Source: Botryllus schlosseri (lineage: Eukaryota). Taken from it: a stretch of DNA of 60,000 bases. The position numbers and the translations under genes are program-made. The stretch spans positions 11,286,001 through 11,346,000 of the forward strand of contig CM119372.1 in assembly GCA_051294905.1 (NCBI GenBank), in the 5' to 3' direction. The notes under the pieces were generated by a model that was given only the letters and a program-made list of their open reading frames with translations, ran no database searches and was not told the origin of the DNA. This document shows positions 331 through 43,752 of this stretch, piece after piece (position 1 is the first letter of the stretch; each line of letters begins with the position of its first letter).

Positions 331-1875
331 ATGACTAATACAAATGCAGAAACGTTGAATACTGAAGCTTGTGGCTTGGAGCCAATTTTCGGCTCCCTCT
401 TAGAAGCTTATTATGACGTCATTGGTCATATTCCGAGCAAGCGATGGAAGGAATTCGCACGTATTGGGCTAGGCGTTCGTGAGCAAGACATGAATGATAT
501 TGCGGAAGATTATTCTTTCGATATTAGGGAGCAGAAATTTCAAGTGTGTCTTAAGTGGGGTGAACTACAAGGCGTCAATGATAAAGATGCTTGTGCAGCA
601 GAGTCGAAAGAAGTAAATGCCGCAAAGATATTCTTATATCGGATTATGAATCATTTTATGTGGCCTGACAAATGTCCGAAACCCGATAGAATACACACAA
701 TGCACAAGCGAGACAGACAGAGTTATTGCGATCGCGTCGGGAATGTAGTTTTATCCAACAGTACGAAAGCCACACGTGGCTTTCTACCATGCTATCAGCA
801 GAAAAGTCTGATGAAGCAGGTCGTTATATTCAACAACTCATTCACACACTCCCATAAGCTCAGGCCTCGCCTGGGATCAAAAGTTGATGTCGCAAACATG
901 AAGAATTTGTGGAATGAGCTTGGATGTCAGGTTGCCATCCACGAAGATTTCACCGCAATAGACATGATGACGAAACTCAAACAATACGCCAGTGACTGGT
1001 GTCAGTTGGCTTTCTGTGCGGTAATTGTGATGTCACACGGTGATGAGGATGACGCCATTTACGGCGAAAGCTTCGAAACGGTCAATTTTGTCCGTGCACG
1101 TAACGTCACGGATACGTTTAGTACAACGAACGCGCCGCGTCTCGCTGGAATTCCGAAACTATTTTTCTTTCAATGTTCCCGCGGGGGCAAAGCGGGCGGA
1201 CCGCGTTTTCGCCATCCACCGCGGAATCAGACTAATCGCGATGCTGTCGTTGGCTGCGCTGGGAATGGAATTCGAACCTTCACCATGGAAGCTCCGGTCA
1301 AACCACACTTTGACAAAACCGGCCACGCTCCACCGCTCTCAGATATGTTAGTGTGCTACTCCACAGCTCCTGGGTATTCCTCGTTTCGCGACCCAAACAA
1401 CGGTAGCTGGTTCATCAACGCCATAACGAATGTGTTTATGAAACATGCCAAAAGCGAACACGTGGTCGAACTGATGATGAAGGTCTGCTCAGAGATGATG
1501 GACAAATCAGCCTCGGGTGATGAGATCTTGGAAGGCCAAACATGCGTTCCTTCATTTGAATGTACATTGACAAAACTTCTTTACCTTGATCCCGCCAATG
1601 CTCTTAGTAGACATCACGAGGAAGCTGAAAAACTAGCCAAAGGCGTCCAAACAGAGCATTCTGATGATGCGATTATGCTGAGGAAGGTACTCATGGAAAT
1701 AGCTTCAAATGATAGAAATGATGAACGAAAGAAGATGACCACTCGCTCGTTCAATACTGGCGATGTTCTATTTACCGAATTTTCATGTCGAAGATTTTTA
1801 GAAACGATATTACTATCATTGGGAATGATTATAGCCTGGACTTACACTCCACACTTACACGATTCAATCAATTGA
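331..1875 (+). CDS. Intronless caspase-like protein with N-terminal death domain and probably inactive catalytic site (QCSRG)
   Basis: Death-domain-like WKEFARIGLG...IREQKFQVCLKW; caspase motifs IFNN, RLGSKVD, VMSHG, PKLFFFQCSRG, SDMLVCYST.PGY, GSWFI. First ATG at 331; possible 5'UTR intron 110-307. Confidence 0.85.
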   Translation: MTNTNAETLNTEACGLEPIFGSLLEAYYDVIGHIPSKRWKEFARIGLGVREQDMNDIAEDYSFDIREQKFQVCLKWGELQGVNDKDACAAESKEVNAAKIFLYRIMNHFMWPDKCPKPDRIHTMHKRDRQSYCDRVGNVVLSNSTKATRGFLPCYQQKSLMKQVVIFNNSFTHSHKLRPRLGSKVDVANMKNLWNELGCQVAIHEDFTAIDMMTKLKQYASDWCQLAFCAVIVMSHGDEDDAIYGESFETVNFVRARNVTDTFSTTNAPRLAGIPKLFFFQCSRGGKAGGPRFRHPPRNQTNRDAVVGCAGNGIRTFTMEAPVKPHFDKTGHAPPLSDMLVCYSTAPGYSSFRDPNNGSWFINAITNVFMKHAKSEHVVELMMKVCSEMMDKSASGDEILEGQTCVPSFECTLTKLLYLDPANALSRHHEEAEKLAKGVQTEHSDDAIMLRKVLMEIASNDRNDERKKMTTRSFNTGDVLFTEFSCRRFLETILLSLGMIIAWTYTPHLHDSIN

Positions 1876-5769: not shown

Positions 5770-7143
5770 TTAATGAAATATTCCAAGAGTGTAGAGGCGT
5801 TCCTTCTGGCGACAGAGAATCGGCTTTCGTAGCTTTATGATCGTAGATTCCAGGACCTTTAAATGAAAAAGAGAACGGCCACGAGCAAGTATAGAAAATT
5901 GACTGTCGTTGTAGTGATCAGCACAATCTGGATGGGATAAGAGATGCTGTCCAATAGCCGAATTACAAGCAGTAACTTGATCATAATCACGCAGTGTGTC
6001 AACAGACTGCGATGAAGGAGTTGGAGAAACATTATTTATTCTAATTTGCCGTGGGACATGCTGGCGAATTCTTTGCTGCAAGCGCTGAGACGTGCGACCT
6101 ACATACCGACTGTCACATCGGCACGTGTATTCATATATTATATTGCTTTGATTTGTCGCAGGTAGCACATCCTTTTGTGTTGCAGGCATCAGAGATTTCG
6201 TCGTGAAGATTATCTGAGGTTCTACTTGTGAAAAACAATGGCTCACTGACGATTTAATTTGTTTTTCAAACCTGTTGGACACTTTCCCAATCCAAGGAAG
6301 ATGCAAATAAACAGGACATTTTCTAGGTCCGAACGGTTTAACTTTTCTGAAATCTTTGAGTTTACGATCTATGGTCATTTTAATGATATGATCAGGATAA
6401 CCATTTGACTGAAAGATTGACCGAATGTTCTCCAATTCAGAATCAAGTTTGACTTTACTACATATCATCAGAGCCCTGTGTACCAGAGTTCTTATCAAAT
6501 TTACTTTACGTTTTACTGGACAGAAAGAATCCCACGAAATGTATTGCCCACTGAATGTAGGCTTACGGTAAACTGATGTAACAAAATTAGCACCCGTCTT
6601 TTCCACTACAACATCAAGGAATGCTAATGAATTATTAACCTCTTTTTCCATGGTGAATTTCAGTGATGGGTGAAGACCATTCAATTTGCTCAGAAACAAA
6701 TCACACTGGGATTCATTTTCAAACATGGCGAAGGTGTCATCAACATATCTTTGATACATTAATGGTCGATCAATATCTTCGAATAACCGTTTTTCGTAAT
6801 ACCCCACAAAAATGTTAGCCAGAATGGGACCAAGCGGCGATCCCATTGCAACACCGTCGATTTGTGTATATATGGTGTTATTGAAACTAAATTCGACATC
6901 ACAAGTGATCAATCGCATTAATTTAACAAAAGAAGACCTTGAGAATGAAGGAGATGGAAGGACACCACCATAGAGTTCATTGGCACAAATCTCTATAGTC
7001 TCTTGAACTGGCACGTTCGTGAATAAACTAGATATATCAAACGAACACATAGAGATTTCGGACTCATCGAGATCAACATTACGAATGGTATCAGCAAATG
7101 TGAACGAGTCACGAATGCAGTTACCACCATAGAGCAAACTCAC
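5770..7143 (-). CDS. Penelope-like reverse transcriptase plus GIY-YIG endonuclease, N-terminally truncated
   Basis: SFDISSLFTNVP, QIDGVAMGSPLGP, YQRYVDD, FLDV, VYRKPT; endonuclease IIYEYTCRC..YVGRT..RL..RIRQH...AIGQH. Confidence 0.93.
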   Translation of the reverse strand: MSLLYGGNCIRDSFTFADTIRNVDLDESEISMCSFDISSLFTNVPVQETIEICANELYGGVLPSPSFSRSSFVKLMRLITCDVEFSFNNTIYTQIDGVAMGSPLGPILANIFVGYYEKRLFEDIDRPLMYQRYVDDTFAMFENESQCDLFLSKLNGLHPSLKFTMEKEVNNSLAFLDVVVEKTGANFVTSVYRKPTFSGQYISWDSFCPVKRKVNLIRTLVHRALMICSKVKLDSELENIRSIFQSNGYPDHIIKMTIDRKLKDFRKVKPFGPRKCPVYLHLPWIGKVSNRFEKQIKSSVSHCFSQVEPQIIFTTKSLMPATQKDVLPATNQSNIIYEYTCRCDSRYVGRTSQRLQQRIRQHVPRQIRINNVSPTPSSQSVDTLRDYDQVTACNSAIGQHLLSHPDCADHYNDSQFSILARGRSLFHLKVLESTIIKLRKPILCRQKERLYTLGIFH

Positions 7144-7163
7144 CGGCTACATCAGTTACATCG

Positions 7164-7976
7164 GTTACATCAGTTTACCGTAAGCCTACATTCAGTGGGC
7201 AATACATTTCGTGGGATTCTTTCTGTCCAGTAAAACGTAAAGTAAATTTGATAAGAACTCTGGTACACAGGGCTCTGATGATATGTAGTAAAGTCAAACT
7301 TGATTCTGAATTGGAGAACATTCGGTCAATCTTTCAGTCAAATGGTTATCCTGATCATATCATTAAAATGACCATAGATCGTAAACTCAAAGATTTCAGA
7401 AAAGTTAAACCGTTCGGACCTAGAAAATGTCCTGTTTATTTGCATCTTCCTTGGATTGGGAAAGTGTCCAACAGGTTTGAAAAACAAATTAAATCGTCAG
7501 TGAGCCATTGTTTTTCACAAGTAGAACCTCAGATAATCTTCACGACGAAATCTCTGATGCCTGCAACACAAAAGGATGTGCTACCTGCGACAAATCAAAG
7601 CAATATAATATATGAATACACGTGCCGATGTGACAGTCGGTATGTAGGTCGCACGTCTCAGCGCTTGCAGCAAAGAATTCGCCAGCATGTCCCACGGCAA
7701 ATTAGAATAAATAATGTTTCTCCAACTCCTTCATCGCAGTCTGTTGACACACTGCGTGATTATGATCAAGTTACTGCTTGTAATTCGGCTATTGGACAGC
7801 ATCTCTTATCCCATCCAGATTGTGCTGATCACTACAACGACAGTCAATTTTCTATACTTGCTCGTGGCCGTTCTCTTTTTCATTTAAAGGTCCTGGAATC
7901 TACGATCATAAAGCTACGAAAGCCGATTCTCTGTCGCCAGAAGGAACGCCTCTACACTCTTGGAATATTTCATTAA
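7164..7976 (+). pseudogene. Inverted second copy of the Penelope RT C-terminus and GIY-YIG domain
   Basis: The 242-aa ORF translation matches the C-terminus of the 5770-7143 ORF. Confidence 0.9.
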
Positions 7977-38983: not shown

Positions 38984-39400
38984 CTACACTTTGAACGTTG
39001 CGGAAGCTTTTGTGAGTCCGTTTTTAGCTTCTGCTAGGAACGTTTCATAAGTTATTTTGTCCACGTCACCGCCAGTTGGCATCAATTCAAAGTCTTTCAC
39101 ACCGATAGTCCGCAGGGCTTCTGAATATTGCTCTTTAGTGATGAAACCTTGTTTAGTGGGGTCCAGCATACCAAATATTGCTTGCAAGTTTGATTCGTCA
39201 AACAGGCATGGATAGTACATTCCTGTTTGTTGAGATACCTTCAACTTTTCCAGCTGCTCAACTAAGTATTCCTTCGGATCGTCTGGCTTATTGTAAATCA
39301 ACATTGACGTCATGTTATCAAGGAGTTCAATAATTCGATGCCGTTGCAAATATGTCTTTGTGTCTGCTTCTCGAACATTGCCTGTGGTAGTGTCAGCCAT
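38984..39400 (-). CDS. EFCAB10: EF-hand calcium-binding domain protein 10 (138 aa, intronless CDS)
   Basis: YLQRHRIIELLDNMTSMLIYNKPDDPKEYL (RIIa/Dpy-30-like) plus LFDESNL.AIFGMLDPTKQGFIT EF-hand; ATG at 39400 downstream of a splice acceptor. Confidence 0.85.
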   Translation of the reverse strand: MADTTTGNVREADTKTYLQRHRIIELLDNMTSMLIYNKPDDPKEYLVEQLEKLKVSQQTGMYYPCLFDESNLQAIFGMLDPTKQGFITKEQYSEALRTIGVKDFELMPTGGDVDKITYETFLAEAKNGLTKASATFKV

Positions 39401-41145
39401 TATGTGTATACTCGATATATTCCAGTTATAATACAGCTGTAGAGAAGTGGAATCAGAGCCGACATGAAATACCATATGAGTCACTAGCCTCATAACGTTA
39501 TCGATTTAGTTTTATTGGTAATTTTATCAATTTGCCTACCAACACGTAGGCCTACCACTTCATTTTCATCGCTTGTTCTTCTTATGGTATTTGTCGAAAA
39601 ACAACATATTTGAATCATCCATGCCCTAATACGTGTCGCCTTGAAATGTAATAAACAACTTGTAACAATTATAGCTGGGACAGGTTTCGATCTCAAATTC
39701 TCTGACGCATGTCTAACCTAAGCTAGCTGGAGTCTGCAGTCGGGATGCTTAGTTCCATGTACTTGATGCCTAGTTTGTAATCTCAATATATCTGTTTCGC
39801 CTCATTTAAACTAGATGCCAGCATGATTCATTCACATTTCTGAAACTAAACATAGCTTGAGAATATTTTCTGTTGAAAAATTGAAATATCTGGGAGCGAA
39901 CATCTGACACAAACACCGGAAACAGTACTATTAACGAAAATAAGAACCATTTACGGTAATTTTGCCTTCGTCGATAATGAATTTCACTGACACTCTTGAT
40001 CGTCGGCAGAATTTAGATGTTTGGACTTTGATATCATTACAGAGGGCTGCGCAGGAAATTTTATTCGATTATAATTAACTCAATTCATGAAAGTCATCTC
40101 TCTTCGAAATTGCGAACGCAAACCTATACAATTGATACACTGGTATATAGCCATAGTGGAATTGGTGGCAACGTCACGCGCAACTTTTATCTTCAATACT
40201 TCATTATTTTAAGTAAAAAACCCTTCTGTCACGCGCAACTCATTGCCGAAAACAACCACTGTTTCCAGTCTGGGTATATAGCACTTTGTAGCACAAATCC
40301 AATGTAACTCCACAATGTATTCGTTGCCATGACACTAACTTCAGGATCACTGAGCTGTGTCGAGTCCATGGCCAACAAGATTAGTCTCATCTAGCTTAAT
40401 TTCATTATTTTATAATAATCCGATAGATACTTCACTTAACCTTCGCTAAATAGAAAAAAATATATCACCTACAGCCACTGAGCTATATAAACATGTCCAT
40501 TGACCATTCTTAATCTGAGGTCCAATGTCCAGTTATGGGCAAGTTGTCCATGCAAACAAGTTTTTCGAGAGTTCTAGCTGTTTGAAAATAATTCCGCTCA
40601 GTTACTGGTTGGTTATTTGTCCTGAAAAACTCGAAACAAGAGCTATGTATGTCTCAATAATAACGTAATGCTATCCATTGATCTCACTGTATATATTTAC
40701 GATTACGACCGATAAGTTTTGAAAAGCAATGCTTTGTTGGTCCGGTTATGTGATGTGATTCAGTATTAACATTTTCCGGGACACTCGCAAATAGATTACC
40801 AACCTAGTCCTATTATAATGTCCTTGATTGATTGGAGGCATCACTTGGCGGTTCATATAATTTTTCCGTGTAGGATAGTTATGTACAATTGTACAATTGC
40901 AATAATAGTAAATTAGCCACATCTCACTCCATCCGTTTCCTGTCAATCTGCCGCAGTCAATGTTATCGTAGGATTCGTAATATTCGTAACATTACTCAAT
41001 ATCTAGGCAACAAAAAGAAATTGCAGTTTGTAGTGCGTGCATTGAGTGGGTGAGGTACGGAGAGCCGGGAGAGGGCGAGTTCGTTAGTCGAGTTGAACCT
41101 TGAACGTTGAACTAGTCTGCCATAATTTATACCAGGGTTGTTGGT

Positions 41146-42229: not shown

Positions 42230-43752
42230 ATGGATCCAATCTTTTATGTTGCTGCGGCAGTCATTGTTTCTCTGCTTCTTTGGTTTGCCATACGATCTAG
42301 GACTGGTGAAAAGCCGGATGCTGGTAACGACACGAGAGATCAACCCCAACCACGTCAGGCAGGTCGTGTACCAGTGCGACGAAGAAATGTTCTCTCGAGG
42401 ATACAGCAACGTGCCCAAGGTACTCACAACTTGTAATGAATATTCAACTGTGTATTAGTATCATTCAACTATTCTCGAGTTCTGGAAGGAGTTCTGAGTT
42501 CTCTACCAGTATGTTACGTCCATTTGTAAAGTGTGCTCAGTTAATGTTCTAATTATAGGAATGCTTTAGAAATTGTTTTGAGTTCATGCATTCTGTCCGT
42601 ATATCTACATGGCATGCCTTATTGTTTATTGGCACAATTGGCATGGATTTTTTAGTATGGGACATAAGGTAAAAATATTTGGAAATTTGCGAAGCTACAT
42701 CAATCACCACCTGAAAATAATGGTTATTTTAGATTTACATCACTTGAAATTGTCATAACTACTGGGCAATGTTTTATGATAGCAATATATTCATGGTGAT
42801 AATAATTTACACTATTATTTTGCATTAAGTCACAGAGATGCTACTTTCAATTTTAAAAGATATAGATTGACCCCTCGTCCCTACCTACTTTTTCAACTAC
42901 CTGGGTAGTCTTCTAATCATTAGTGTTCTACTTCTACTTAATTTTGACATATTAGTAACCACTGCTTCTACTTCTAATTTGGTAGAAATTCACAGTATTT
43001 CCTAAAGTTGAGTTTGATCATCTCCGATTGCACTTCCTGCGTACTGAGACCTGTTCCCTTTGAAGCGACATTCTATTATTTCCTAACGCTGTCACAATAT
43101 CCTTGCATTTTCAGAAAATCAACTCAATGACCAAGATTCCGATGACGAGGATGCAGATAGCAAAAAGATAGGCGCGAAGAAAAGGAAGAAACTGGAGGAG
43201 AAAGAAGAGCGGAGGAAAATGAGAGAGATAGAGATGAGGGAACGGGAGGAGCGAAAAAGGGAACAGGAAGAGAGAGATGAAACGAGGCGTCTCGACGATG
43301 AGAGAAAATTAAAGGAGGAGGCGAAAATTGCGGAGGAAAAACGTGTTGAACTTGAAGAAAAAGAGAGACGCGAACATGAGGAGTATCTCAAGCTGAAAGC
43401 CATGTTCTCAGTGGAGGAGGAAGGGGATGAAGCCATAAATACCGAAGACGGAGGCGAGAATATGCTACTGCAATTTGTTGAGTTTGTCAAATCGAAGAAG
43501 GTTGTCCTTCTGGAGGACCTGGCTTCTCATTTTGGGTTGCGGACGCAAGAGGCCATCGACAGGGTGCAGACGATGTTGAACGACGAGATTTTAACTGGAG
43601 TCGTCGACGACAGGGGGAAGTTTATATATATATCGAACGACGAACTGAATGCGGTCGCAAAATTTGTAAAGCAACGCGGACGGGTGTCTATAAGCGACTT
43701 GGCGCAGGCCAGTAATTCATTAGTGAATTTGATTTCGGAAAGTGCAACCTGA
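42230..43752 (+). CDS. DDRGK1: DDRGK domain-containing protein 1 (UFBP1), two coding exons 42230-42419 and 43115-43752
   Basis: N-terminal signal anchor, [50 protein letters not shown]; phase-1 splice is consistent. Confidence 0.96.

Follow-up and report, generated by a model that had tools for sequence, protein, structure and literature searches.

Organization of the locus and the encoded protein

On its forward strand the window (the whole stretch of 60,000 nucleotides of Botryllus schlosseri DNA that was analyzed) contains a frame that is free of stops from 271 to 1875 and has its first ATG at 331. Single contigs from two public sequencing runs, X11 (255-2075) and X15 (312-2075), cover the ORF at 331-1875 without a joint, in agreement with the uninterrupted ORF described in an earlier sequence-only reading of this DNA. 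The features of the gene are listed below by position in the window.

331-1875, + strand: single-exon ORF of 514 aa, comprising a death domain, a pseudo-caspase domain, and a tail (ORF translation)
397-660, + strand: death domain, aa 23-110, of the TNFR/DR3/RIPK1/Fas type (PDB matches, model)
820-1584, + strand: caspase (Peptidase_C14) domain, aa 164-418 (Pfam E 1.4e-39)
868-870, + strand: Arg180 (RLGS), an S1-pocket arginine, invariant in 14 Cys caspases and in 3/3 Ser proteins
1033-1041, + strand: SHG with the catalytic-position His236 (alignment)
1171-1185, + strand: QCSRG, with Gln281, Cys282 (position -1, ancestral), and Ser283 (TCC, nucleophile position) (alignment, contig runs)
1186-1335, + strand: disordered intersubunit linker (pLDDT <50 at aa 288-334)
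1381-1413, + strand: p10 substrate-binding segment SFRD...NGSWF with Arg353 (alignment)
1488, + strand: C>A variant giving a premature stop at Cys386 in one X18 contig (contig comparison)
1552-1569, + strand: last beta strand region, with F[EQ]CT common to the three Ser proteins (alignment)
1633-1656, + strand: octamer resembling an LC8 (dynein light chain) site, aa 435-442 (fits the LC8 rules, found post hoc)
1795-1839, + strand: hydrophobic C-terminal stretch, aa 489-503, a possible tail anchor (KD 1.93 over 15 aa, 1.33 over 19)

The 10 kb upstream of the gene contain no long ORF of note, and directly downstream, at ~2140-2400 and beyond, is a high-copy interspersed repeat at which contig depth runs into the thousands. 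A retroelement ORF with a reverse transcriptase match (Pfam 2e-9) and weak similarity to GIY-YIG is found at 5770-7146 (-) and 7104-7976 (+), together with a partial duplicate of its 3′ part in inverted orientation, and is Penelope-like. An EFCAB10-like ORF at 38984-39505 (-) and a DDRGK1-like ORF at 43087-43752 (+) are ordinary neighbors with no evident link to the gene.

The protein possesses the p20 and p10 domain and the fold of the caspases (Peptidase C14A) together with the catalytic His, but the Cys of the QxCxG motif is absent and its place is taken by Ser283. Caspase-9 is the best PDB sequence match, and the AlphaFold2 model of the protein (mean pLDDT 76, pTM 0.60, 27-row alignment) has a caspase fold that agrees with solved caspase structures (Foldseek TMt 0.87 for caspase-3; VIA Z 30.1, rmsd 2.7, 227 aligned). 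The codons at 1171-1185 are CAA TGT TCC CGC GGG, which encode QCSRG. When the protein is aligned with caspase-9 and with 29 other caspases, Ser283 falls in the nucleophile column and Cys282 in the one before it (-1), with no gap. As the sequence-only reading had described, the SHG histidine (His236) and both S1 arginines are retained, Arg180 in RLGS and Arg353 in SFRD at 1381-1392, which is followed by NGSWF at 1399-1413, and with Gln281 the S1-pocket set for a P1 Asp is complete. The residue at the Gln281 position of caspases acts at the P1-Asp site, and in the closest orthologue, P0002, it is replaced by Glu (ECSRG), so that the earlier description of an intact pocket is true of the B. schlosseri protein and does not extend to that orthologue. 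Within the disordered linker, Asp304 is a candidate cleavage site. The last beta strand of caspases is the dimer interface, and the F[EQ]CT found there in the Ser proteins is absent from all seven Cys relatives compared.

The death domain, which the sequence-only reading had only inferred, is supported: all 16 PDB sequence matches of residues 13-120 are death domains (DR3 at E 1e-4, RIPK1, TNFR1, and Fas), and the model forms a six-helix bundle at aa 23-110, with pLDDT mostly >90, that aligns with the death domain of FADD at a Z of 9.4 (rmsd 2.6, 77 aligned). An insertion before the last helix is common to this protein and P0002. The Pfam Death family gives no match on this protein and does match P0003 and P0004.

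The tail past the caspase domain has 95 residues here and 108 in P0002, and the two tails produce no BLASTP alignment to each other. A hydrophobic C-terminal end, which is stronger in P0002 (KD17 2.08) than here (KD17 1.58, in a short stretch that holds a Glu), is missing from all 28 other caspases (KD17 <=1.01), and the Ser protein of Styela clava has neither the tail nor the hydrophobic end. The octamer at aa 435-442 conforms to the LC8 motif rules of PMC6607443 (branched residues at -1 and +1, Gln at 0, Lys/Arg at -3, Asp/Glu/Pro at +2, and an extended region), and a canonical TQT version of the motif is present in the P0002 tail. Shuffling of the two tails gives such octamers at frequencies of 3e-4 and 6e-3, for a motif that was noticed post hoc, and the pattern occurs also in P0006 and P0023. 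The LC8-like motif and the hydrophobic end are possibly a binding site and a membrane anchor, and we offer them as a lead only.

The serine codon, polymorphism, and expression

Eight public runs were compared with the window at the nucleophile codon. In five of these (X9, X11, X15, X16, and X18), which represent five studies, none flagged as the source of this DNA, a contig passes over 1171-1185 with no difference listed; a contig of X5 also lies over the codon and has one undisplayed difference, and X10 and the raw RNA run X24 have no coverage of it. The Cys codon TGC occurs in none of the runs that cover the position. An assembly error at the Ser codon is ruled out, because the codon is identical in contigs from five studies, and the natural Cys-to-Ser replacement that had been read from QCSRG is thereby confirmed.

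For the selection test, 42 coding variants were pooled from among the variants listed, which do not include differences close to contig ends. The caspase domain contains 12 synonymous and 6 non-synonymous variants (pN/pS 0.14, binomial p 7e-5), the ratio being 0.07 once changes private to X18 are removed, and the death domain contains 6 and 5 (pN/pS 0.22, p 0.015). The corresponding counts are 0 and 2 in the linker and 3 and 8 in the tail, for which the pN/pS of 0.77 is not significant. The polymorphism pattern is that of purifying selection on the gene, and neutral evolution, against which the sequence-only reading was to be checked, is not borne out. Besides the nonsense variant at 1488, X18 has four private missense changes. 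The nonsense variant is probably a null allele, possibly segregating, or a contig error, and in combination with the missense changes it means that some individuals may be able to do without the gene.

Expression of the gene is only hinted at. In a raw single-cell RNA run, of which ~3% was read, mean depth is <3 on parts of the gene and five reads come from a single start. In seven contig runs, whose kind is either guessed or unknown, cover of the gene begins at 245-545 and leaves 141-210 uncovered, and none of the matching runs is recorded as RNA.

A serine clade of ascidian death-domain caspases

The nearest named relatives of the protein are from Styela clava and Ciona. Two other proteins carry Ser at the nucleophile position, the Logan protein P0002 (46% identity, ECSRG) and S. 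clava XP_039256627 (36% identity, QTSRG). Searching 1.84 billion representatives with a profile brought in, beside P0004, the Cys-bearing sisters S. clava XP_039253563, P0009, and P0016. No further homologues emerged from other profile searches or from word searches restricted to the domains, a metagenome scan gave none, and the ESM Atlas gave generic caspase clusters only.

In a 26-row tree (LG+G4, with five motif columns dropped and rows chosen from the top matches and the genome G000), the three Ser proteins form one clade (100/97) within a QCCRG subfamily (95/95), and support for the clade is 86-93 in trees with fewer taxa. In a tree of the death domain only, the Cys protein P0004 falls inside the Ser clade (85/90). 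A pairing of the two S. clava paralogues is rejected by the AU test (p-AU 0.0004), and a grouping of P0003 with P0004 is not rejected (p-AU 0.085). A single origin of the Ser is likely on these trees, as opposed to two, and S. clava keeps both members of the subfamily, one with Ser and one with QCCRG. The Cys-bearing sisters P0004, P0008, P0009, and P0016 have QCCRG or QCCRT, and because QCCR is present in all four that are intact, the ancestor would have been QCCRG, which a single base change, TGC to TCC, converts into QCSRG. Ser at the nucleophile is an old trait of the whole clade. The sequence-only reading had picked up neither this trait nor the LC8-like motif and hydrophobic end of the tail, nor MCA4 as a tested precedent for pseudopeptidases with His and Cys-Ser.

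Summed over branches, divergence within the Ser clade is ~2.2 changes per site. Eighteen columns are conserved at >=90% among 14 Cys caspases; the three Ser proteins show no variation at 15 of these, with the nucleophile column counted as Ser, compared with 38 of 149 variable columns. All three retain His236, Arg180, Arg353, Ser359, and Trp360, the exception in the site being the Gln281 to Glu change of P0002. Judged from this conservation, the active site of the clade is still under constraint.

A pattern scan of 152 retrieved proteins found 163 Cys and 7 Ser motifs, with 7 proteins having no readable motif. Five of the seven Ser cases lie outside this clade, and they include a tandem caspase of Mytilus edulis (P0057, XP_071176331) that has one QACRG domain and one SHG...QCSRG domain. 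P0057 is likely to have reached the same motif independently, in a layout like that of caspase-X.

Caspase complement of the genome

The genome searched for caspases (G000, 495 Mb) gave 38 matches. Among 25 long caspase frames that were parsed, the nucleophile is Cys in 23, Gly in one (L011, in which His is also replaced by Tyr), and Ser in one; L015 has lost the His, and broken or degenerate caspase copies are present as well. The Ser gene appears to be single-copy and unlinked to the cluster of death-domain caspases on C8. G000 contains no intact Cys-bearing member of the gene's subfamily, and the sole candidate sister, L027, is degenerate: its open frame includes no death domain, and both Arg180 and the p10 loop are missing. 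These observations argue against a simple pairing with a sister caspase in B. schlosseri, where a partner would have to come from among more distantly related death-domain caspases (L002, L004, L009, L012, or L014). The genome also has L032-L036, a set made up of four death-domain exons that are nearly identical and lie on C16, C1, and C4, and of a fifth death domain (Pfam 2e-7). These are the closest G000 death domains to that of this protein and are candidate recruiters.

A candidate death-domain-recruited regulator

We lean toward the explanation that, in the manner of cFLIP or Aedes CASPS18, the protein is a catalytically dead regulator that is recruited through its death domain and dimerizes with active caspases. 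The Ser is fixed and the gene is under purifying selection, and the regulator or decoy put forward by the sequence-only reading is the best reading. That the enzyme would be dead is suggested by the inactivation of caspases on Cys-to-Ser replacement, which abolishes activity in caspase-15 (PMC12292325) and has been used to inactivate procaspase-3 and -6 (PMC7586219), and by the natural analogue MCA4 of T. brucei, which has His, Ser219, and Cys218 and is reported to have no peptidase activity (PMC3220528).

In the mechanism that we propose, an ancestral QCCRG death-domain caspase was duplicated and one copy exchanged its Cys for Ser, and His with Ser and no thiolate would give no proteolysis. 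The death domain would take the protein to receptor or adaptor death-domain assemblies, and through its conserved last strand it would pair with a death-domain caspase that has the Cys, whose activity it would tune or block in the way that cFLIP acts on caspase-8. The retained Arg/His pocket might hold an Asp-bearing linker or substrate, which would account for the pocket still being selected, and in B. schlosseri and P0002 a putative tail anchor and LC8 site would pre-dimerize the protein on a membrane. Taken together, the selected death domain, last strand, and pocket suggest that the protein is recruited to death-domain platforms and pairs with caspases that are active. Two comparisons speak against the pairing part of this explanation: cFLIP and caspase-X have lost both His and Cys, whereas this protein retains a His for which a pure dimer scaffold would have no use, and MCA4, the closest active-site analogue, is described as having no apparent influence on other metacaspases (PMC3220528).

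In the next alternative, which we think rather unlikely, the protein is an inactive trap or scaffold that stands alone, binding Asp substrates or inhibitors such as IAPs in its intact pocket or signaling via its death domain, with no caspase partner. Retention of His, both arginines, and the p10 Ser/Trp over ~2.2 changes per site speaks for such a trap, G000 offers no intact sister caspase, and MCA4 acts without affecting other metacaspases. However, the Glu of P0002 places an acid beside the P1-Asp site, and the conserved F[EQ]CT of the last strand, which is specific to the clade, points to a dimer surface under selection.

We consider it improbable that the protein is a serine-nucleophile protease within the caspase fold, with Ser283 and His236 as a working dyad and a narrow substrate. 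Ser, rather than Ala, Gly, or another residue, is invariant together with His in all three proteins, in which only 38 of the 149 variable columns are, and the other dead paralogues in G000 lose His (L011, L015). Nevertheless, caspases with an engineered Cys-to-Ser change have no activity, MCA4 was assayed for just such an activity and proved inactive, and Ser is a one-base, isosteric exit from Cys that recurs in five unrelated matches. No serine-nucleophile enzyme of the caspase fold was known as of 2011, according to PMC3220528. Only catalysis by the Ser would turn the finding into a major result.

The sequence-only reading had also allowed for an enzyme with a shifted nucleophile, with catalysis taken over by Cys282, and this possibility, which we regard as very remote, is largely rejected. 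The -1 Cys is present in both this protein and P0002, but it is ancestral, being found in all four intact Cys-bearing sisters, and the -1 column varies freely in Cys paralogues (A, M, I, F, S, and C). The Ser protein of S. clava has Thr at this position, and inheritance of the Cys together with the Thr in Styela makes a shift unlikely; in addition, the alignment register is kept without a shifting gap and the equivalent Cys218 gave MCA4 no rescue. Finally, an artefact or decaying duplicate without current function would explain the nonsense-bearing X18 contig, the broken or degenerate caspase copies of G000, and the thin raw RNA cover, but this reading, to which we likewise give hardly any credence, is already largely refuted by the same codon in five studies, by the caspase-domain pN/pS (0.14, or 0.07 without the X18-private changes), and by open frames with the same Ser in the two relatives at 46% and 36% identity.

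Comparison with known inactive caspases

As a regulator the protein would have several counterparts. It resembles MCA4 in keeping the His, in having Ser at the nucleophile position, and in having a Cys just before it, and MCA4 itself has been shown to be inactive and membrane-associated. MCA4 differs in being a metacaspase (Arg/Lys specific) of independent origin that has no death domain, is lipid-anchored, and lies downstream of MCA3. CASPS18 has Ser in place of the catalytic Cys. It is an enhancer of CASPS19 (PMC4840389), and CASPS18 and the dipteran caspase-like decoys are inactive duplicates that modulate an active paralogue (PMC3141678, PMC4840389). CASPS18 is of the effector type and its active sister is known, whereas G000 seems to be without such a sister.

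Within the ascidians, the QCCRG caspases (S. clava XP_039253563, P0004, and P0009) share the subfamily, the death-domain N terminus, and the -1 Cys with the Ser proteins, but they keep the catalytic Cys and end at the usual LYL(Y/F)PG with no tail. Ascidians belong to the sister group of the vertebrates. In vertebrates, cFLIP (CFLAR) is likewise a conserved inactive caspase paralogue with a death-fold prodomain, and its caspase domain, in which His and Cys are replaced by Arg and Tyr, functions as a regulator (PMC5668880); it is reported as vertebrate-only and absent from Ciona. The likeness to cFLIP, which is in the likely regulatory role, stops at two DEDs and membership in the caspase-8 clade, as opposed to a single death domain with His kept and Ser at the nucleophile, and in our tree the protein groups with tunicate death-domain caspases, apart from the DED-type row L026. 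Coral caspase-X has an inactive caspase domain, without His and Cys, as a regulator (PMC4715348). In caspase-X and in P0057 of Mytilus edulis, the inactive-type domain is paired with an active one and both are in one chain. Bacterial pseudo-orthocaspases carry Tyr/Ser (PMC6426788).

Pseudo-caspases as a kind are therefore already known, and Ser at the nucleophile is recurrent. The apparent novelty lies in an ascidian clade that is conserved, has a true death domain, keeps the His and arginines, and possibly has a membrane tail. No description of the ascidian Ser clade was found in the main texts of the literature searched, including PMC10923776, PMC7836458, PMC13736523, and PMC11463336 as far as their available sections go, and the work of Weill et al. 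2005 on urochordate caspases may bear on its novelty. The clade would represent an independent, long-lived ascidian pseudo-caspase, built on a true death domain and altered at the nucleophile with the rest of the site mostly kept. It would provide a single-copy candidate brake or enhancer for ascidian death-domain signaling, and a clean test case from nature for the retention of the His and substrate pocket by a dead enzyme.

Other caspase genes in the genome

At 2.35-2.40 Mb on C8, six single-exon caspases lie in tandem (L002, L004, L005, L009, L011, and L012), most of them with death domains, and three of the cluster's caspases have QFCCG or QSCCG, with Cys in place of the Arg that follows the catalytic Cys. 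In L011 His and Cys are both gone and the frame is still open, with a dN/dS of 0.41 versus L004. There is also a large expansion of QMCRG caspases, which together with other members (in all, L003, L006, L007, L010, L019, L021, L025, L027, and P0010-P0012) have short N-terminal or linker segments rich in Ile/Gly/Asn/Gln; these segments presumably resemble amyloid motifs of the RHIM type. Open frames of 580-640 aa with weak caspase similarity (E 1e-7 to 1e-3) are located at C16:7.51, C3:22.97-22.99, C11:26.44, C7:4.19, and C3:17.98 Mb.
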